DNA of 64,000 bases, from positions 48,385-112,384 of the forward strand of contig JAFXTH010000004.1 in the NCBI GenBank assembly GCA_017525035.1. The letters run 5' to 3'. The stretch comes from Bacilli bacterium. Its GTDB lineage: Bacteria > Bacillota_I > Bacilli_A > RF39 > UBA660. Of the stretch, positions 7,235 through 34,966 are shown piece after piece. Made by a program: the position numbers and the translations under genes. The notes beneath the pieces are model-generated. The model did not search any database. It was not told the DNA's origin and saw only the letters and a list, made by a program, of their open reading frames with translations. The stretch's first letter is position 1; each line of letters begins with the position of its first letter.

Positions 7235-8776
7235 CTATTCATCAAATAATTCTTTTGCTTTATCTTTTAAAGTTTTTTTTGTTTTTTCATTTTTTGGTTC
7301 TTCTTGATATTTGAACTTATCTTTATTGTTTTTATACTCTGCAGTATATTTTTTCCAATCATCTTCAGATAAGCATACAACCATATATTTTCCACCAAAT
7401 GTTTGATTTATTATTTTATTTACTACATCTATATCACTATTTACTTGAGTTGCAATACCATTTAATTTTGATATAAGTATTATATTTGTATCACTTGCTG
7501 CTACTGGCATAGTATCTGATGATAATAATCTTGCTATATTTCCATATTGTTCATCAAACGCTAGGTCTTTTATTTTGTCCCAATTACTTCTTATTTCAGA
7601 AATAATTGTTTTTTGTGGATTATATAATGTATTACCTACTCTTATTTCTATGATATTTTCATCTATTTTATTAGATTCAACTGGTTCTTTTATATTTTTC
7701 TTTAATTCTTCTTTTACTTCATTTGATTGTTTAAACTCTGTTTTGGTTTCTTTTATTGGTTCTTCATCTAGTAAACAATTTATTATAGTTACTTCAAATA
7801 TTATTTTTGGATTTTCTGACTTTTCCATTAAAGTAACCATTTGGTCTAATTCATTTATTAATTTACATAAAGATCTATCATATTTTTTTTCTAATACTAT
7901 TTCATCTCTTAAATATTCAATGATGTTATTAGCTAACTTTAATAAATCTATTCCTTCATTATAAAAATCATTAATTTTTACTATTAATTGTTCTATATTT
8001 TTATTTTGAAATAATGTTATAAAATCATTTAAATCTTGTTCTGAAACGTTTCCTGATATTTCTTTAATTGTGTTAGCAGTTATTGTTTTATCAGTATATG
8101 CCGCAGCTTTTTCTAATAAGCCGATAGCATCTCTTAGCCCGCCATTAGAATATTTTGATATTTCGCTTAATGCTGTATCATCAATATCTATATTTTCTTT
8201 TGTTGATATTTCTTTTAATTTTTGTGTCATTGATTGTGTATCAATCTTTCTAAATTCCAATGTTTGGCATCTTGATATTATTGTTAATGGTACTTTTTGT
8301 AGTTCTGTTGTTGCAAGTACAAAAATTGCATGTTCTGGTGGTTCTTCTAATGTTTTTAGTAATGCATTAAATGCACCAGTTGAAAGCATATGTACCTCAT
8401 CTACAATATATACTTTATATTTTAGTTCTGAAGGAACAAACGATATTTTATTTTTTAATTCTCTTATTTCGTCTACACCATTATTTGATGCTGCATCAAT
8501 TTCTATAATATCTACGCAGCCTGGTTCAATAGATATTTTGCAACTATCACATTTTTCACATGGAACACCATTTTTTGGTGATTCACAGTTAATTGTACGC
8601 GATAATATTTTAGCTATTGAAGTTTTACCTGTTCCTCTAGGTCCATAAAAAAGATACGCATGAGAAATATGATTATTTTCTATAGCATTTTTTAATATTT
8701 GTATTGTTACTTTTTGTCCTACTACTTCATCAAAGTTTTTAGGGCGATATTTTCGATATAATGCTTGAAATTTCAT
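7235..8776 (-). CDS. dnaX: DNA polymerase III tau/gamma subunit.
   Basis: Walker A GPRGTGKTS is present, as are clamp-loader motifs and a zinc module (CEKCDSCK). The start was chosen at ATG 8776 because AGGGGG lies 6 nt upstream; the track's TTG at 8794 is less likely. Confidence 0.9.
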   Translation of the reverse strand: MKFQALYRKYRPKNFDEVVGQKVTIQILKNAIENNHISHAYLFYGPRGTGKTSIAKILSRTINCESPKNGVPCEKCDSCKISIEPGCVDIIEIDAASNNGVDEIRELKNKISFVPSELKYKVYIVDEVHMLSTGAFNALLKTLEEPPEHAIFVLATTELQKVPLTIISRCQTLEFRKIDTQSMTQKLKEISTKENIDIDDTALSEISKYSNGGLRDAIGLLEKAAAYTDKTITANTIKEISGNVSEQDLNDFITLFQNKNIEQLIVKINDFYNEGIDLLKLANNIIEYLRDEIVLEKKYDRSLCKLINELDQMVTLMEKSENPKIIFEVTIINCLLDEEPIKETKTEFKQSNEVKEELKKNIKEPVESNKIDENIIEIRVGNTLYNPQKTIISEIRSNWDKIKDLAFDEQYGNIARLLSSDTMPVAASDTNIILISKLNGIATQVNSDIDVVNKIINQTFGGKYMVVCLSEDDWKKYTAEYKNNKDKFKYQEEPKNEKTKKTLKDKAKELFDE

Positions 8777-8805
8777 ATTATTCCCCCTTAACAAATATCA
8801 ATAAT

Positions 8806-8814
8806 ATTATATCA
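8806..8814 (-). promoter_or_regulatory. Candidate extended -10 element (TGaTATAAT) for dnaX.
   Basis: The minus strand reads tgaTATAAT about 30 nt upstream of the dnaX ATG, and the region further upstream is AT-rich. There is no strong -35. Confidence 0.35.
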
Positions 8815-8856
8815 TATATATACAACAAATTAGTATATTTTCTTTATATTTTTATT

Positions 8857-8874
8857 ATGTTTCACGTGAAACAT
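8857..8874. repeat. 18-bp perfect palindrome ATGTTTCACGTGAAACAT (motif A, copy 1).
   Basis: Perfect dyad symmetry read directly from the sequence. It lies about 45-65 bp upstream of the putative dnaX -10. Confidence 0.9.
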
Positions 8875-8896
8875 TATTTTTCAAAAACAGTTATAG

Positions 8897-8913
8897 TTAC
8901 ACGTGAAACATTA
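8897..8913. repeat. Motif A copy 2 (TTACACGTGAAACATTA; imperfect left arm).
   Basis: It shares CACGTGAAACATTA with copies 1, 3 and 4. Confidence 0.85.
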
Positions 8914-8928
8914 CTTTTTTTTAATAAA

Positions 8929-8950
8929 AAATATTTCCCGGGAAATATTT
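8929..8950. repeat. 22-bp perfect palindrome AAATATTTCCCGGGAAATATTT (motif B, copy 1).
   Basis: Perfect dyad read directly from the sequence. Confidence 0.9.
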
Positions 8951-8971
8951 TTGACTTTTTTTAGGCATTTT

Positions 8972-8993
8972 TATTTCCCGGGAAATATTTCCC
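8972..8993. repeat. Motif B copy 2, TATTTCCCGGGAAATATTTCCC. It holds two overlapping palindromes, TTTCCCGGGAAA and GGGAAATATTTCCC.
   Basis: Read directly from the sequence. Half-sites TTTCCC/GGGAAA alternate in both arrangements. Confidence 0.9.
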
Positions 8994-9005
8994 AAACTTT
9001 TTTAT

Positions 9006-9030
9006 TGTTACACGTGAAACATTATCCACA
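9006..9030. repeat. Motif A copy 3 fused to a consensus DnaA box (TGTTACACGTGAAACATTATCCACA).
   Basis: CACGTGAAACATTATCCACA is identical to 9630-9649, and TTATCCACA is the perfect DnaA-box consensus. It lies immediately downstream of the tadA stop codon. Confidence 0.9.
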
Positions 9031-9034
9031 ATTA

Positions 9035-9457
9035 TTATTTATTTCTAATATTGGTAAAGGCATCTTTAATTATTTTTTCACAGTTGTCTATAATAATTTT
9101 GTTGTTAATCTGTTTAGCTTCAATATTAGAATCGATAACATTATTTTTTGCACCATATACTACTTTGGATATTTTTGTTGCTTTTATTACTTCTTTGCAC
9201 ATTGGACAAGGTTCTAGTGTTGTATATAATACACAATCTAAAAGACGCCAATTATTCAATTTTATATTTGCCTTTTCAATTGCTATAATTTCTGCATGCT
9301 TCGTTATTACTTGTTTTGAATCTCTTAAATTATGTCCTTTTGATACTATTTCATTATTTCTAACAATTACTGCACCAACTGGTATTTCATTTTTATTAAA
9401 AGCTTTTAATGCTTCTTTATATGCAATATTCATAAAATAATTATCATCATTTATCAT
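9035..9457 (-). CDS. tadA: tRNA-specific adenosine deaminase TadA (CDA-fold deaminase).
   Basis: It has the HAEIIAI and PCPMC zinc motifs. The start was taken at ATG 9457, with GGAG 6 nt upstream. The 27-codon N-terminal extension in the track overlaps the SRP RNA gene and is probably not translated. Confidence 0.8.
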   Translation of the reverse strand: MINDDNYFMNIAYKEALKAFNKNEIPVGAVIVRNNEIVSKGHNLRDSKQVITKHAEIIAIEKANIKLNNWRLLDCVLYTTLEPCPMCKEVIKATKISKVVYGAKNNVIDSNIEAKQINNKIIIDNCEKIIKDAFTNIRNK

Positions 9458-9479
9458 ATGATCAACTCCAATAAAAAAT

Positions 9480-9553
9480 GATGCACATAAGCACAGACAT
9501 GTTAAGGCTGCTACATTCCTGTTCTGACCTGGTTCCACCGTACTTATTGCATC
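9480..9553 (-). ncRNA. ffs: Small (4.5S-type) signal recognition particle RNA.
   Basis: The minus strand contains ACCAGGUCAGAACAGGAAUGUAGCAGCC. This matches the universally conserved SRP RNA domain IV (E. coli 4.5S ACCAGGUCAGGUCCGGAAGGAAGCAGCC). The flanks CCAGGUCAG and AGCAGCC are identical and the GGAA tetraloop is present. The long helix is closed by GAUGCA/UGCAUC and AUAAG/CUUAU pairing. It is preceded by a TTGATT-N17-TAAAAT promoter and followed by AUUUUUUAUU. The exact ends are approximate. Confidence 0.75.
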
Positions 9554-9559
9554 AATGTA

Positions 9560-9588
9560 ATTTTACTATAAAAACGCGATATAATCAA
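9560..9588 (-). promoter_or_regulatory. Sigma-A-type promoter for ffs (and possibly tadA): -35 TTGATT (9583-9588), -10 TAAAAT (9560-9565), spacer 17.
   Basis: Read from the minus strand. The predicted transcription start (about 9553) coincides with the 5' end of the SRP RNA helix. Confidence 0.55.
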
Positions 9589-9612
9589 CAAAAAAGAGAA
9601 TTATTCATTCTC
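9588..9612 (-). terminator. Intrinsic terminator at the end of gyrA. The hairpin is GAGAAUgaauaAUUCUC and contains the gyrA UAA stop; it is followed by UUUUUUG.
   Basis: A 6-bp stem plus U-run read on the minus strand. It is AT-rich and therefore weak. Confidence 0.4.
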
Positions 9613-12204
9613 TTTTTCTTCTTCTGTTTCACGTGAAACATTATCCACAGTTTCTGTTAGTTCCACATTTTCTCCAATTTCATCAGTTTCTTCCATTTCT
9701 TCTTTCGCAATTATTGCGGTAGTAGAAACTTTTTGTTCTTCTTTTAATGAAATTAATCTTACTCCTTGAGTATTTCTACTTAATGTAGATATTTGATTAA
9801 TACTTATTCTAATAGTCATACCACTATCAGTAATAATAATTAAATCTTCATCTTCATATACTGTTCTTAATGATACTAAACATCCATTCTTATCAGTAAT
9901 ATTAAGAGTTTTAACTCCTTTGCTTCCTCTATGAGTTAATCTGTATTCATCTATTGGAGTTTTCTTACCATATCCTTTTTCAGTAACAATTAATACTTCT
10001 GCATTTGGTTCAACTACTTCTGCACCAATTACAGTCTCATCTTTTCCTAATTCTATACCTTTAACTCCAGAACTTCCTCTTCCCATTACACGAACTTCTG
10101 TTTCATTAAATCTAACTAATTTACCATTGCTTGCTCCGATGATTATTTCTTTAGTACCATCAGTCTTTCTAACTGCAATTAACTCATCATCATCCTTAAG
10201 AATTATTGCTTTTTTACCATTTGATCTAATGTTATCAAATTCTTCTCTAGCAGTTCTCTTAATTAATCCGCGTTTTGTTATGAATGTTAAGAATGATTGA
10301 TCACTTTCAGCGCTTATTGTTACAACTGAAGTAATTTTTTCTTCTTTTTCTAGTGGTAATAAGTTAACTATTGGTAATCCTTTAGCTTGTCTTGAGAATT
10401 CAGGTACTTCGTAACCTTTCATTCTATATACTTTACCTAAATTACTAAACATTAAAATATAATCATGTGTCTTCATTGATAATAGTTTTTCTGGGAAATC
10501 TTCCTCATTTGTAGACATTCCTTTAATACCAACTCCACCACGATGTTGAACTTTGAATGTATCATTAGTAATTCTCTTAATATATCCTTTATTTGTTAAT
10601 GCAATTAAGATGTTTTCTACTGGTATTAATGATTCATCTTCAATATAATCAACTGCTGTCATATCAATTGTAGTTCTTCTATCATCACTATATTTAGATT
10701 TTATTTCAAGCATTTCTTTCTTGATAATTTCTAATACTTTTTGTTCTGATGCTAGAATTGACTTCAATTCTTCTATTTCTGCAAGAAGTGCAGCAAGTTC
10801 TGCTTCAATCTTATCTCTTTCTAATCCAGTTAATCTACGTAATTTTAATTCTAGAATTGCATCTGTTTGAATTTCTGAAAGCCCAAATTTTTCCATTAAG
10901 CTTTCTTTAGCTTCAACATCAGTTTCTGCATTTCTAATAATTTTAACTACTTCATCAATATTATCAAGTGCTATCTTATAACCTTCTAAGATATGTACTC
11001 TCTTTTCATCTTTTGCAAGATCAAATCTTGTACGTCTTATAATAACTTCTTTTTGGAAGTCTATATATTTAGATATAATTGATTTTAAACTTAATGTCTT
11101 TGGAGTTAATCCATCAAGCATTAATAAGATAATTCCATAAGTAACTTGGAAATTTGTATGTTTATATAAATTATTTAATACTACTTGTGGATTAGCATCT
11201 TTCTTTAATGTAATTGTGATTTTTACTCCATCTTTTAAATCTGTATGGTAATCAGCAATTCCATCAATAGTTTTGTTATGTACAAGTTCAGCTACCTTAT
11301 TCTTTAATTCCATTGTATTAACACCATAAGGTACTTCTGTAATAACTATATTGCTATGAGAACCTTGATCTTCAATTATAGCCTTACTTCTAATAGTAAT
11401 TGTTCCTCTTCCTGTATCGTACGCTTGTTTGATACCAGAGTTACCTAAAATAAGTCCACCTGTTGGAAAATCAGGTCCTTTTATGTGTTGCATTAATCCT
11501 AAAGTGTCGATATCAGGATTATCTATGTATGCTACACATCCATCTATTACTTCACCTAAATTATGTGGTGGAATATTAGTTGCCATACCAACAGCTATTC
11601 CCATTGCACCATTTACTAATACATTTGGAAATCTTCCAGGAAGAACTCTTGGTTCTTTTCTTGTAACATCAAAGTTATCATCCATATCAACTGTATCTTT
11701 GTTGATATCTCTTAATAATTCTAGTGATATTTTAGCAAGACGTGATTCTGTATAACGCATTGCTGCTGCTCCATCACCTTCGATATTACCAAAGTTACCA
11801 TGTCCATCAATTAACATATATCTTTGGTTAAAATCTTGTGCCATTCTAACCATTGCTTCATAAATTGAAGAATCTCCATGTGGATGGTAATTACCCATAA
11901 CTTCTCCAACTGTTTTAGCACTTTTTCTGTGTGGTTTATCTGGAGTATATCCTGATTCATACATTGACCACAAAATACGTCTATGAACTGGTTTTAATCC
12001 ATCACGTAAATCAGGAAGTGCACGTGAAGCAATAACACTCATTGAATATTCCAAGAATGATGTTTTAACTTCTTCAACAATATTGTTTTCAGCTAAACTA
12101 TCTCTTTCATGAAAATATCCACCAAAATTGTTATCAACTTCTACTCTTTCAAGAGATTCATCGAATTCTTCATCTATTTGTTCTTTGTTTTCTTCGTTAT
12201 CCAT
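9601..12204 (-). CDS. gyrA: DNA gyrase subunit A.
   Basis: The 867-aa product contains [25 protein letters not shown], the active-site region (YHPHGD) and an acidic C-terminal tail. It also has an N-terminal acidic extension of about 40 aa. Confidence 0.95.
9625..9649. repeat. Motif A copy 4 plus a consensus DnaA box (TGTTTCACGTGAAACATTATCCACA), embedded in the last codons of gyrA.
   Basis: The 16-bp perfect palindrome TGTTTCACGTGAAACA is followed by TTATCCACA. On the minus strand it encodes ...TVDNVSRET... of the GyrA C-terminal tail. Confidence 0.9.
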
Positions 12205-12220
12205 TCAACTCCACTCCCTT

Positions 12221-14143
12221 CTAAATATCTAAGTTTTGAACGTATCCAGCATTTTCTTCTATGAATTTTCTTCTTGGATCTACTTCATCACCCATTAGTT
12301 TTTCAAAGATTGCATCTGCTGCTACACAGTCATCTACAGTTATTTTTCTTAATACACGCTTTTCTATGTCCATTGTAGTCTCGTTTAACTCTTCAGCGTC
12401 CATTTCACCTAATCCTTTCATACGAGCGATTTCTGCCCTGTTTCTGACGTTTTCAGGTAATGTATTTAAATAACTTTCTAGTTCTTGTTCATTTAGTACA
12501 TATTTTCTTGTTTTACCATGTTGAATTCTAAATAATGGAGGTTGTGCAGCATATATATGCCCTGCTTCAACGATTGGTTTAAAGAATCTATAGAATAATG
12601 TTAGTAATAATACTCTTATGTGTGATCCATCAACGTCGGCGTCGGTCATTATTACTATTTTGTCATATCTAAGTTTTGATAGGTCAAATTCTTCACCAAT
12701 TCCAGTACCAAATGCAGTAATTATTGTTCTAATTTCTTCATTTGATAATGCTCTATCTAATCTTGCTTTTTCAACATTTAATATTTTTCCTCTTAATGGA
12801 AGAATAGCTTGTGTCATTGAATCTCTACCTTTTTTAGCAGAACCACCTGCTGAATCTCCCTCGACTATAAAGATTTCAGATACTTTTGGATCTTTACTCT
12901 TACAATCTGATAATTTTCCAAAGAAGTTTGTTGTAGCTAAGTCACTCTTTCTTGTTATTTCTCTTGCTTTTCTTGCTGCATTTCTTGCACGACACGCTAA
13001 CATAGCTTTACTAACTATTGCACGTGCATCATCTGGATTTTCTAATAAAAATCTTTCAAATCCTTGTGCAAAAACATTATCTGCAAGTTTTCTTACTTCA
13101 GAGTTTCCAAGTCTTCCTTTTGTTTGTCCCTCAAACTGTGGATTTGGATGTTTACAAGAAATAATCATTGTTAATCCTTCTTTAACATCATCTCCAGTTA
13201 GAGGTTCATCTTTTTCTTTTAATATATTATTTTTTCTAGCATAATTGTTGATAACTCTTGTTAAGGCACGTCTTACACCTTCTTCATGAGTACCACCATC
13301 ATGAGTATTTATATTATTAACAAATGAATATATATTTTCATTGTATCCAGTGTTATACTGCATAGCAACTTCAAAGAATACTCCATCTTCTTCTCCATCT
13401 AAGTGAATAATATCTTCATGTACTGGAGTCTTACCAGTATTAATGAATTTAACATATTCACTAATACCACCTTCATATAAGAATGTTTGTCCTGTAGTAT
13501 CTTCATCATCTCTATCATCTCTTAAATTAATTGATAATCCTTTATTTAAGAATGCTAGTTCTCTTACTCTAACCATTAATGTTTCATAATTATAAATGTC
13601 AGAATCAAATATTTCAGGATCTGGTTTGAATGTTACTGTAGTACCTGTTCTATTTTTATCACATTCTCCAATTACTTTTAATGGCTCAATAGTATGCCCA
13701 CCATTTTCAAATTTCATGTAGTTAACTTTACCATCTTTGTATACTGTTACTTCTAACCATTTTGATAAAGCATTAACTACTGATGCACCAACTCCATGAA
13801 GACCTCCAGATACTTTGTATCCTCCTCCACCAAATTTACCACCAGCATGTAATACAGTATAAACTGTTTCTACTGTTGATTTTCCAGTTTTTGGGTGAAT
13901 ATCTGTTGGTATTCCACGTCCATCATCTTTAACAGTAATTGAATTATCTTTATTAATTACTATTTCAATATTATGACAAAAACCAGCTAATGCTTCATCT
14001 ATTGAATTATCTACAATTTCCCATACTAAGTGATGTAATCCTTTTACATCAGTAGTACCTATATACATTCCTGGTCTTTTTCTTACAGCTTCAAGTCCTT
14101 CTAAAACTTGTATAGAAGATGAATCATATTTTTCATTATCCAT
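12221..14143 (-). CDS. gyrB: DNA gyrase subunit B.
   Basis: The 640-aa product has the GHKL ATPase motifs ([19 protein letters not shown]), a Toprim domain ([14 protein letters not shown]) and [12 protein letters not shown]. Confidence 0.95.
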
Positions 14144-18542: not shown

Positions 18543-18893
18543 GTCATCAAGCCCCCCGCCTAATAATTACAAGAATTATTGTAGACTAAATGTTCAAAAA
18601 AGAAAAGAGAAAATCAATAAAAAAAATTATCAACAAGAATTGCACAAAGTTTTCCATAATTAATATCTTTTATTTATATATGTTATATAAGTTTTCCACA
18701 TTTTCCACAAATTTTTAGTCACATTGTGTAGAAATTTGTTTACAGATTTATCAACAATGTTGTTAATTATGTGAATAAGTTTAAAATGTTAACATATTTA
18801 TGTTGATAACTTTTTATTTTAATGATATCATTTTATTGACATTTAGAGATTTACTTTATATAATAATGTAGATTTTAGTTTGGAGGTGGAATT
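18543..18893. promoter_or_regulatory. oriC: oriC upstream region. It holds a cluster of DnaA-box-like 9-mers and an AT-rich stretch ending in the rpmH promoter.
   Basis: TTATCAACA occurs at 18628 and 18748. TTTTCCACA occurs in tandem at 18692-18700 and 18701-18709. The reverse boxes are TGTGAATAA (18770) and TGTTGATAA (18801). The region lies between divergent dnaA and rpmH. Confidence 0.7.
18836..18864 (+). promoter_or_regulatory. rpmH promoter: TTGACA (18836-18841), 17-nt spacer, TATAAT (18859-18864).
   Basis: Consensus -35 and -10 with ideal spacing, about 30 nt upstream of the rpmH GTG. Confidence 0.7.
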
Positions 18894-31904: not shown

Positions 31905-33218
31905 ATGAATGACAATAATAGCGAAGTAGTATATTTATATTTGGATGATATTATTCCAAATAGATTTCAACCAAGAGAAGTATTTGATGAACAAGCATTA
32001 AAAGAATTAGCTGTATCAATCAAAGAACATGGAGTTATACAACCAATTATTGTAAGACAGGTTGAAAATAAATATGAAATTATTGCAGGAGAAAGAAGAT
32101 ATAAGGCATCAACAATGGCAGGTCTTACAAAGATACCTGCAATTGTTAAGAATTTAGATGATAAAGAAAGTTCTAAAATAGCTTTAATAGAAAATCTTCA
32201 GAGAAAAGATTTATCACCAATTGAAGAAGCAAGAACATATCAAAAGATTCTTGAAATTGAGGATAATATGACTCAAGAAGAACTTGCTGCTACTATGGGT
32301 AAAACTCAATCTTCTGTATCTAATAAATTAAGATTGTTAGCATTACCTGAAGAAGTTCAAGATGCTTTATTGAAAGATAAAATATCTGAAAGACATGCAA
32401 GAACATTATTAAACTTAGAAGATAGAAACGATCAAATAAAGATGATGGATCGAGTAATAGAAAATAAAATGACAGTAAGAGAGCTTGAAAAAGCAATTAA
32501 AGAATTTAAAGATCCTACAAGTATTGTGGAAGAAAATCAAGCTATAGATGCAGCTCCAGCGATTGTAAATGTTGATGATGCATCACTTAGTGCTAGCGAT
32601 TTAGTAAATGAAGAATCACAATCAACAGAAAGAACATTGGCGGATACATTTATGGATATTAAAAATGGAATAGACACAGAAACAAATACTGAAGCAGTTT
32701 CTGTTGAAGAACAAATAGACGCAATTGATCCAACAGAAGTAAATATAGACAAAATAAGAGAAAGTGCAGTGGACATTGGAGGAGCAAAAGTTGAAGAGGC
32801 TACAGAAGTAAGTCCTGAACCACAAATGGGATTTAAATTTGTTCCATCGTTCAGTTCAGCAGGAACAGTAACAGAACCTCCAACAACACCGGAAGTTGTG
32901 GCAGTAGAACCCGTAACAGAAGCACCTGCGCCAACTGAAGAAGTATCAGATATATCTCCTGCTTTTGAACAACCATCTCAAGACTTAGTTAATAAAGAAC
33001 CAACACTAGATGAAATAAATCAACCAGATACAATTGCAGCAGAGATTGGAAACCAACCTATAGCAATAGCAGCAGGTGGTAAAGATATATCAACAGCTAT
33101 TGAAAAAATAAAAGAAGAAGTTGATAGTTTAAAGAATGATGGCTACAACGTAATGCTTGATGAAATGGATAATAAAGACAATTATTTGATTTCAATTATT
33201 TTTAAGAAAGATGCATAG
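31905..33218 (+). CDS. noc: ParB-family nucleoid occlusion protein (Noc-like) with a long acidic/Pro/Thr-rich C-terminal extension.
   Basis: The N-terminal ParB motifs are present (IIAGERRYKAS, HTH region). It lies between rsmG and soj, the Noc position in Bacillus. Residues from about 230 to 437 are low-complexity (EPVTEAPAPTEEVSD...). Confidence 0.7.
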   Translation: MNDNNSEVVYLYLDDIIPNRFQPREVFDEQALKELAVSIKEHGVIQPIIVRQVENKYEIIAGERRYKASTMAGLTKIPAIVKNLDDKESSKIALIENLQRKDLSPIEEARTYQKILEIEDNMTQEELAATMGKTQSSVSNKLRLLALPEEVQDALLKDKISERHARTLLNLEDRNDQIKMMDRVIENKMTVRELEKAIKEFKDPTSIVEENQAIDAAPAIVNVDDASLSASDLVNEESQSTERTLADTFMDIKNGIDTETNTEAVSVEEQIDAIDPTEVNIDKIRESAVDIGGAKVEEATEVSPEPQMGFKFVPSFSSAGTVTEPPTTPEVVAVEPVTEAPAPTEEVSDISPAFEQPSQDLVNKEPTLDEINQPDTIAAEIGNQPIAIAAGGKDISTAIEKIKEEVDSLKNDGYNVMLDEMDNKDNYLISIIFKKDA

Positions 33219-33306: not shown

Positions 33307-34092
33307 ATGGGAAAAATGATTTCTTTAGTTAATCAAAAAGGTGGAGTTGGTAAAACTACTACTAGCATTAACTTATCTGCGTCTTTAGCTTATTTAGGTA
33401 AAAAAGTATTATTATTAGATTTAGATCCACAAGGAAATACCACTACTGGTATTGGTATGAATAAAGGTGATATAGATAGAACTATCTATGATGTATTAAC
33501 TGGAAAATGCAATATTGAAGATGCTATTATCCACACACAATACAAGAGATTGGATTTAATTCCAGCAACTGTTAACTTAAGTGGATTAGACACTGAATTT
33601 TTCGAAAAATCTAAAGAAGAACCTAACTTTGTTAAAGGAGCACAATTAAAAAATAAAATTAAATCAATTAGAGACAATTACGATTATATTATCGTTGATT
33701 GCCCACCATCACTAAGTATTATTACAATAAATGCTTTGACTGCATCAAACTCAGTTATAATACCAGTTCAATGTGAGTTCTTAGCACTTGAAGGTATTAT
33801 GCAATTATTAAATACAATTATGATGGCACAAAAACAATTAAATCCTAGTCTTGAAATTGAAGGAGTTTTACTAACAATGTTAGATTCAAGAGCAAATTTA
33901 GGATTTGAAGTAGTTGAAGAAATCAGAAAGTATTTCAAAGAAAGAGTTTATAATACAATTATTCCAAGACTTGTTAGACTTGCAGAGTCTCCATCTCATG
34001 GGAAGCCAATAATAGCATATGATCCAAAATGTAGAGCAACTGATGCTTATATAAATTTAGCGAAGGAAGTGATTGAGAGAAATGGACAATAA
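33307..34092 (+). CDS. soj: Chromosome partitioning ATPase ParA/Soj.
   Basis: The 261-aa product has the deviant Walker A NQKGGVGKTTT. Confidence 0.9.
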   Translation: MGKMISLVNQKGGVGKTTTSINLSASLAYLGKKVLLLDLDPQGNTTTGIGMNKGDIDRTIYDVLTGKCNIEDAIIHTQYKRLDLIPATVNLSGLDTEFFEKSKEEPNFVKGAQLKNKIKSIRDNYDYIIVDCPPSLSIITINALTASNSVIIPVQCEFLALEGIMQLLNTIMMAQKQLNPSLEIEGVLLTMLDSRANLGFEVVEEIRKYFKERVYNTIIPRLVRLAESPSHGKPIIAYDPKCRATDAYINLAKEVIERNGQ

Positions 34093-34966
34093 CACTTATA
34101 AAAGAAGAGCTTTAGGAAAAGGATTAGAGGAACTATTTAACAACGAACAAATTAATTTTGATCAAATTGAGGAGAAAATACTAGATTCAAGTACAAGAGA
34201 TGAAATAGTAGAATTGCCAGTTGATGAGTTAAGACCTAACCCATATCAACCTAGAAAAGTATTTGATGAAGATAAGTTAAATGAACTAGCTAATTCAATT
34301 AAAGAACATGGTATTTTTCAACCAATTATTGTTAAGAAAAGTTCAATAAAAGGTTATGAAATAATTGCCGGTGAAAGAAGAGTTAAAGCTTGTAAAATTG
34401 CTGGTATTGAAAAGATACCTGCTATAGTAAGAGATTTCACTGATGAACAAATGATGGAAATTGCATTGCTAGAAAACTTACAAAGAGAAAATTTAAACTC
34501 AATAGAAGAAGCAATGGCTTATAAAAACTTGCTTGATGCAATGAAAGTAACACAAGAAGAACTTGCTAAAAGGTTAGGTAAGAGTAGAAGTCATATTACT
34601 AACATGTTAGGACTTCTAAATCTTCCTGAAGAAGTAAAAGATATGATTGTAGAAGAGAAAATATCTATGTCTCATGCAAGAGTATTAAGTAAGATGGAAA
34701 ATAAAGAAGAAGTTATAGCACTTGCTAATAGAATTGTTAATGAAAGATTAAATGTTAGAGATATAGAAGATGTATCTAAAGATGAATCTATCAAGAAAAC
34801 ACATAAGATTAAAGTAAAACAAAACAATAAATATGAGTATATTCAAAATACAATGTGTGAAAAACTAGGTACAAAAGTTAAGATAACTTCTAATAGAATA
34901 AATATTACATTTACTAATGATAATGATCTAAATAGAATATTAGAAATATTAAATATTGGTGAATAA
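34082..34966 (+). CDS. spo0J: Chromosome partitioning protein ParB/Spo0J.
   Basis: It has ParB box motifs (IIAGERRVKACK, HTH LAKRLGKSRSHITN) and overlaps the soj stop. The start was chosen at MDNNTY; the track starts at 34073. Confidence 0.85.
   Translation: MDNNTYKRRALGKGLEELFNNEQINFDQIEEKILDSSTRDEIVELPVDELRPNPYQPRKVFDEDKLNELANSIKEHGIFQPIIVKKSSIKGYEIIAGERRVKACKIAGIEKIPAIVRDFTDEQMMEIALLENLQRENLNSIEEAMAYKNLLDAMKVTQEELAKRLGKSRSHITNMLGLLNLPEEVKDMIVEEKISMSHARVLSKMENKEEVIALANRIVNERLNVRDIEDVSKDESIKKTHKIKVKQNNKYEYIQNTMCEKLGTKVKITSNRINITFTNDNDLNRILEILNIGE

Follow-up and report, generated by a model that had tools for sequence, protein, structure and literature searches.

Positions 9470–9559 of the minus strand carry ffs, the gene for the small, 4.5S-type signal recognition particle (SRP) RNA of an uncultured, low-GC, Bacilli-class gut bacterium. 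The probability of this reading is about 0.96. The gene is located between gyrA and tadA in the window, that is, the whole 64-kb stretch of DNA that was analysed, whose G+C content is 27.9%. It is a genuine yet ordinary housekeeping RNA gene, of the sort that standard annotation pipelines pick up. Since SRP RNA, which assists in the delivery of membrane proteins, is universal and the standard Rfam model exceeds its threshold here, it has little significance past its correct annotation. The features of the region are as follows.

9470–9559, minus strand: ffs, small (4.5S-type) SRP RNA, full extent of the RF00169 match
9560–9588, minus strand: sigma-70-type promoter TTGATT-N17-TAAAAT, predicting a start (+1) at G9553, 7 nt past the -10 hexamer
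9547–9553, minus strand: 5' arm of the closing helix, GAUGCA (9553–9548), with the conserved GCAA (9550–9547), aligned with E. coli 4.5S positions 19–25
9506–9533, minus strand: domain IV (helix 8) core ACCAGGUCAGAACAGGAAUGUAGCAGCC, with symmetric and asymmetric internal loops and a GGAA cap
9480–9487, minus strand: 3' arm of the closing helix, UGCAUC (9485–9480), overlapping the conserved UGUGC (9487–9483), which corresponds to E. coli U82–C86
9473–9478, minus strand: U6 run directly past the closing helix, forming with the SRP hairpin an intrinsic-terminator-like 3' end
9590–9615, minus strand: weak terminator-like hairpin AGAGAA-TGAATAA-TTCTCT with a T-run at the gyrA end, read from the sequence
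9035–9457, minus strand: tadA (putative tRNA adenosine-34 deaminase), true coding sequence of 140 aa, with the ribosome-binding site (RBS) GGAG at 9469–9466
9458–9538, minus strand: 27-codon N-terminal extension of tadA from GTG 9538, noncoding, ffs read as protein

In a scan of the whole window with Rfam 15, RF00169 (Bacteria_small_SRP) scored 48.8 bits at 9470–9559, above its gathering score of 40, with E 1.5e-7 and a match running over model positions 1–97 of 97. This is the sole Rfam match above the gathering score in the 64 kb. An earlier note on this DNA had placed an SRP RNA on the minus strand between gyrA and tadA and had proposed a scan of the region with RF00169; the match, which covers the full model, bears it out. 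RF00169 still ranked first in a permissive scan of positions 8700–9700. Two matches to miRNA models in the tadA-dnaX spacer, whose 28 and 21 bits fall far short of the respective gathering scores, 90 and 55, were set aside as chance matches to palindromes. A clade-specific covariance model had exactly one match in the window, at 86.5 bits. The best member of the Rfam clan is RF00169 rather than RF01854, which indicates the small type without an Alu domain. The 181-nt region containing ffs is free of any difference on six independent contigs of the same species. Among the 26 ORFs of the window that were profiled, about half of its large ORFs, no match to ffh or ftsY was seen.

The score of 48.8 bits is modest because the terminal 5-bp helix of the model (positions 4–8 with 87–91) is deleted in the alignment of the window RNA to RF00169. 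The same helix is missing from all short orthologues located upstream of tadA. It is not defining for function, as minimal SRP RNAs are without it.

Read downwards from 9588, the minus strand shows TTGATT, a 17-nt spacer, TAAAAT, UACAUU, GAUGCAAUAAGUACGGUGGAACCAGGUCAGAACAGGAAUGUAGCAGCCUUAACAUGUCUGUGCUUAUGUGCAUC (9553–9480), A, UUUUUU, AUU, GGAG, an 8-nt spacer, and ATG at 9457. The 143-nt spacer between gyrA and tadA is thus taken up by promoter, hairpin, and RBS. The core hairpin extends from 9554 to 9479 and is about 74–76 nt long. The sequence ACCAGGTCAGAACAGGAATGTAGCAGCC lies at 9533–9506 with its GGAA tetraloop at 9519–9516. Its flanks GUCAG and AGCAGC are the same as those of E. coli ffs, so the assignment of this part to domain IV in the earlier note stands. 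The closing helix GAUGCA...UGCAUC is also where that note had it: the arms GATGCA (9553–9548) and TGCATC (9485–9480) are mutually complementary. GCAA and UGUGC align with the model consensus GcAa and UGUGC. The single sequence folds into one long hairpin with the GGAA loop at -25.7 kcal/mol. The z-score is only -1.99, and therefore the fold energy alone is not the evidence for the RNA. The fold and the promoter, each weak singly, are instead supported by comparative data.

Profiling of GTDB representatives with TadA gave two loci and one useful relative, L007; the species of the window itself seems to be missing from these representatives. This uncultured Bacilli MAG, whose TadA is 46% identical, has an RF00169 match of 52.6 bits directly upstream of tadA. 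An alignment of 45 TadA homologues was the query that fetched 80 metagenomic loci; Rfam was run on 40 of them, and the clade-specific covariance model on all. The SRP RNA adjoins tadA in 51 of 81 related loci, and several of the other 30 are cut by a contig end.

Covariation was analysed in a MAFFT alignment of 23 distinct orthologues with a structure of 27 pairs from RNAalifold. Compensatory double changes are seen in 22 of the 27 pairs. The proportion of paired cells is 93.7%, against 66.6 ± 1.4% in shuffles, and cells changed on both sides number 172, against 51. The covariation score is 0.758, against 0.228 for shuffled alignments, and none of 500 shuffles reached it. When the 3' partner was slid by 1–3 columns, the score was at most 0.112. 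The three pairs closing the tetraloop covary. Twenty-six columns are invariant in the 23 orthologues, including GUCAG, AGCAGC, three of the four tetraloop positions, and bases of GCAA/UGUG. The helix-8 motif is therefore kept in the orthologous loci, and the covariation proposed as a check by the earlier note is present. Among 34 distinct orthologues the tetraloop is GGAA in 29, GAAA in two, and GGGA in three. The last, which stands in place of a GNRA loop, is seen in the RNAs of L058, L063, and L075, all located downstream of tadA.

The E. coli 4.5S RNA (ffs, 114 nt) is likewise a single hairpin without an Alu domain. Its sequence was confirmed against 5425 genomes with the annotation "signal recognition particle sRNA small type"; the median number of ffs copies in E. 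coli genomes is one. The window RNA aligns with E. coli positions of about 19–90. Common to both are the GGAA tetraloop, the GUCAG/AGCAGC(C) loops, GCAA (E. coli 22–25), and UGUGC (82–86); the orthologues of the clade share with E. coli GUCAG, AGCAGC, and GNRA, plus CAA and UG. The window RNA is without the outermost helix of E. coli 4.5S (1–18 and 91–114), is about 30 nt shorter, and is much richer in A+U (38–39% GC). In E. coli, the 5' leader of 4.5S RNA is removed by RNase P. The window RNA probably starts at the base of the helix, and so may need no such processing of a 5' leader. The E. coli distal site includes G83, C86, and C87, which are in or beside the retained UGUGC motif; where E. 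coli has C87, the window RNA has an A.

In cryo-EM structures, the NG dimer of Ffh and FtsY binds the tetraloop first and then relocates to the distal site of helix 5; it is in this second position that GTP hydrolysis becomes activated (PMC5454536, PMC4737761). The window RNA should serve as the scaffold of a minimal Ffh-4.5S SRP. Its own sigma-70-type promoter would give a transcript probably beginning at G9553 and ending in the U-run past the closing helix. Domain IV, with its GGAA tetraloop and its symmetric and asymmetric loops, would bind the M domain of Ffh, and the tetraloop would receive the Ffh-FtsY GTPase dimer. The basal GCAA/UGUGC loop is the putative counterpart of the E. coli distal site, to which the dimer would relocate for GTPase activation.

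The 4.5S-like RNAs of Mycoplasma are also minimal hairpins shorter than 85 nt, with domain IV and a short helix 5. They measure about 77 nt in M. mycoides and about 79 nt in M. pneumoniae. The likeness extends to the type of host, as both come from low-GC, wall-less or reduced organisms of the Bacilli lineage. The long genes of the window are without in-frame stops under code 11, which indicates that the organism is probably not a code-4 mycoplasma.

The scRNA of B. subtilis (scr, about 271 nt; RF01854, Bacteria_large_SRP) shares the neighbourhood of tadA, dnaX, ybaB (yaaK), and recR near the origin. It contains an Alu domain and matures from a longer precursor, whereas the window RNA is of the small type. 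The gene order in B. subtilis is tadA-scr-dnaX. In the window, unlike B. subtilis, ffs is upstream of tadA, and the tadA-dnaX spacer holds parS sites instead.

Two gene orders are seen among the relatives. In 17 loci (L007, L009–L012, L014, L018, L022, L023, L028, L040, L048, L054, L059, L062, L069, and L071), the arrangement is that of the window, and a gap of 2–49 nt (169 nt in L022) separates the end of the RNA from the match to tadA. All relatives whose TadA is at least 54% identical and whose upstream DNA is long enough belong to this upstream type. In the other 34 loci, which are more distant, the RNA is located 0.8–1 kb past tadA (49 nt in L047). In 14 of 16 checked, this downstream-type RNA is about 45–75 nt before dnaX, giving the order tadA-(ORF)-ffs-dnaX. 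The position of ffs upstream of tadA, which the earlier note had contrasted with Bacillus, is thus an arrangement of the whole clade, and it is the distant relatives that keep the Bacillus-like order.

The hairpins of 31 distinct orthologues span 71–96 nt, with a median of 87 nt. The window hairpin of 76 nt is typical of the upstream class, most of which are 71–83 nt. The downstream-type RNAs are 93–96 nt and without a U-run; they are longer because an extra closing helix UAUGGAGAG...CUCUCCAUAGAG is retained. The architecture of the SRP RNA thus tracks the gene order, 93–96 nt before dnaX (L019, L024–L033, L035, L038, L041, L046, L051, L053, L056, L058, L063–L068, L073–L079, L083, and L087) against a shorter RNA, usually with a U-run, before tadA. 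The window RNA had been considered as one of the smallest SRP RNAs; it is small, but with a clade range of 71–96 nt it is not exceptional. The clade supplies natural minimal SRP RNAs of 71–83 nt, in which the tetraloop and the GCAA/UGUGC loop are kept and the outer helix is gone. Such a set could reveal the smallest RNA scaffold on which the Ffh-FtsY cycle can run.

The -35 hexamer TTGATT is at 9588–9583 and the -10 hexamer TAAAAT at 9565–9560. Together they match the consensus at 9 of 12 positions, a match without significance of its own where DNA is so rich in A+T, as 8.4 such sites are expected and 11 were found. In 13 of the 17 upstream-type loci, however, TTGNNN-N17-TANNNT ends exactly 30–31 nt before GUCAG, although the spacers are unrelated and the background density of this pattern is 0.0027 per nt. 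The remaining four contain TTTACA or extended -10 variants. The promoter predicts +1 at G9553, where the closing helix begins, in agreement with the start at the 5' end of the RNA that had been proposed earlier.

The U-run noticed past the 3' end is likewise present, as T6 at 9478–9473, and a U-run follows the 3' arm in most upstream-type orthologues. A terminator scan of the region did not flag the ffs hairpin. The scan wants a loop of 3–8 nt, at least three G-C pairs, and a short stem, and the long hairpin is outside these limits; the 3' end rests on the conserved U-run. The primary transcript is predicted to run from G9553 to about 9471–9475, a length of 79–83 nt; as a single hairpin, the RNA is put at about 76–83 nt. 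The weak hairpin at the gyrA end (9590–9615) has clearer equivalents, AGAGGA..TCCTCT followed by T7, ahead of the ffs promoter in L010, L011, and L014. As read from the sequence, it may separate gyrA from the ffs promoter.

The RBS of tadA starts right past the U-run, 1–3 bases from it, which leaves no room for a separate promoter. Judging from this layout, tadA is probably transcribed by read-through of the ffs terminator from the ffs promoter. A candidate promoter of tadA inside the RNA, TTAACA-N16-CATCAT (9505–9478), was rejected. Both of its hexamers are parts of conserved RNA motifs, insertions make its spacing vary in L009, L011, and L014, and orthologues with a stem of the TGCACA type do not have it.

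It can be speculated that the minimal SRP RNA doubles in this clade as the transcriptional gate of an essential gene, so that tadA would be expressed only via read-through of the ffs hairpin terminator. According to this scenario, ffs would have left its Bacillus-like place ahead of dnaX for one ahead of tadA. In the course of this move it would have shed the outer helix and acquired a U-run, and parS sites would have come to occupy the place it had left. This is tentative, and we consider it somewhat less than an even chance. If it is true, the dosage of a tRNA-editing enzyme would be coupled to the transcription of ffs and to the efficiency of its termination.

Alternatively, the hairpin could belong to the tadA/dnaX operon as a leader, attenuator, or terminator acting in cis, which would be SRP-like in sequence only and would not work as a free-standing RNA. 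A hairpin with a U-run just before the RBS of tadA does resemble an intrinsic terminator, and tadA has no separate promoter. A terminator, however, needs no invariant GUCAG/AGCAGC, GNRA loop, or GCAA/UGUGC, all of which are kept and largely shared with E. coli. The same RNA is found 0.8–1 kb past tadA in the 34 distant relatives, and is therefore not tied to the leader position of tadA. There is also no other SRP RNA candidate in the window. A mere leader is thus very improbable. The role as SRP RNA and the gating of tadA are not exclusive of each other, as the SRP RNA may control tadA transcription as well.

The stretch was also considered as protein-coding, with TadA truly extended at its N-terminus from GTG 9538 by residues that would include MEPGQNRNVAAL... 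Upstream of ATG 9457 this frame stays open for 35 codons and offers a GTG start, and the mechanical ORF from GTG 9538 is 167 aa long, opening with MEPGQNRNVAALTCLCLCASFFIGVDH before the body of TadA. Extended TadA proteins are found in public databases as well (P0087, P0098, P0101, P0104, and P0106). However, the TadA equivalog profile aligns only from residue 29 of the long ORF, at profile position 4, and the GGAG RBS is located 8 nt before ATG 9457. The upstream frame is closed by a stop 2–3 codons before the ATG in L010, L018, and L040, and in other relatives it is another frame that runs open through the RNA. The substitutions in this stretch compensate each other at the RNA level. Public gene calls do not record the 167-aa product, while they place the exact 140-aa product on 19 contigs from ENA metagenome assemblies. 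As we read them, some of the sample names behind these contigs suggest a ruminant gut study.

The extended database proteins all open with EPGQD.KIAAL. The sequence ...EPGQD(R/W)KIAAL... is what translation makes of the domain IV motif, and P0104 and P0106 differ from it at 1–2 positions. Since these proteins begin with the translated SRP motif, they represent the same artefact, and the coding reading is effectively refuted; its probability is next to nil. The earlier note was right that the extension is an artefact, as homology starts at ATG 9457 and the upstream frame is not conserved. Its wording of an annotated N-terminus is not borne out by the public gene calls for this species, in which the form on record is the 140-aa one. 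The mis-extension of TadA by 25–45 residues through ffs recurs in related organisms, as in the five database proteins and loci L023, L048, and L059. The translated SRP motif stands at the N-terminus of five among the 120 closest TadA relatives listed. EPGQD.KIAAL is a simple signature for cleaning tadA calls that have run through ffs.

The identity of tadA itself was examined with profiles and homologues. The best NCBIfam match is NF008113 (TadA), at 104 bits and E 6e-30, below the curated cutoff of 150. In 45 homologues the zinc-motif columns H54, A55, P83, C84, and C87 are invariant and E56 is kept in at least 90% (H-A-E and P-C-x-x-C). One JGI homologue is named tRNA(adenine34) deaminase, and a 99%-identical protein at NCBI is named "MAG: nucleoside deaminase [Bacilli bacterium]".

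That ffs here is a decaying or redundant second copy, with the functional gene outside the window, is hardly credible. In its favour, only 64 kb of the genome was seen, and the 48.8 bits are below the 52–71 bits of many relatives. Against it, six independent assemblies agree in every base of the region, promoter and U-run are undamaged and hold their positions among the orthologues, and compensatory changes occur across the clade. The loss of the terminal helix, common to all upstream-type orthologues, accounts for the lower score, and the E. coli median is one ffs copy.

The ffs gene of the window is a member of the block dnaA-dnaN-recF-gyrB-gyrA-ffs-tadA-dnaX-ybaB-recR-holB. gyrA (9601–12204) scores 1135 bits against the gyrA equivalog. 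gyrB is at 12221–14143 on the minus strand, and the equivalent gene of a public contig contains the Pfam domains of GyrB. RecF, DnaN, and DnaA are encoded farther along the minus strand, and YbaB, RecR, HolB, RicT, and Pth in the other direction. dnaA occupies 18542–17160 of the minus strand; past a change of gene orientation at about 19 kb, yidC, jag, mnmE, and mnmG are on the plus strand. Seven of 38 DnaA boxes with at most one mismatch fall in the 18–20 kb bin, six of them within 18627–18801. This cluster places ffs about 9 kb from the origin.

Four parS-like palindromes TGTTTCACGTGAAACA are present at 9625–9640, 9006–9021, 8895–8910, and 8858–8873, where 0.03 are expected by chance. Two are perfect, one has one mismatch, and one has two. 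They fit the B. subtilis parS consensus. One lies within gyrA, near its 3' end and immediately ahead of the ffs promoter, and three are in the tadA-dnaX spacer, the place where Bacillus-like relatives have ffs. The upstream-type relatives contain 1–6 parS-like sites, mostly in the tadA-dnaX spacer; in L012, L018, L022, and L059 one such site is beside the ffs promoter.

Perfect DnaA boxes TTATCCACA are found at 9641–9649 and 9022–9030, the only two thereabouts, and each abuts a parS site. DnaA box and parS together form a direct repeat of about 25 nt, TGTGGATAATGTTTCACGTG(A/T)AAC, at 9649–9626 and 9030–9007 of the minus strand. The two repeats flank the ffs-tadA unit and are 619 nt apart. The same composite is seen in L028 and twice in L054. 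From its composition, the repeat might be a module for co-binding of DnaA and ParB, or a scar left when a rearrangement carried ffs to its present place.

Between the parS sites, AT-rich nested palindromes, GGGAAATATTTCCCGGGAAATA and AAATATTTCCCGGGAAATATTT, are at 8993–8972 and 8950–8929 of the minus strand. One was flagged as terminator-like on the plus strand (8980–8993). They could be a bidirectional terminator or a protein-binding site.

No tRNA genes were found in the 64-kb window. In distant relatives, tRNA genes flank tadA, at 1956–2032 in L015–L017 and about 40–600 nt upstream in L025, L038, L042, L046, L047, and L050. Upstream of tadA in many distant relatives is tRNA-Arg(CCT). Immediately downstream of tadA in L015–L017 is tRNA-Arg(ACG), the substrate edited by TadA.

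An ORF of the ParB/Noc family, 437 aa long, is located at 31905–33218 on the plus strand. It matches over residues 7–210 with 281 bits against a Noc cutoff of 315. The match spans only these residues and leaves out the C-terminal half of about 225 residues. ORFs at 33307–34092 and 34073–34966 come after it.
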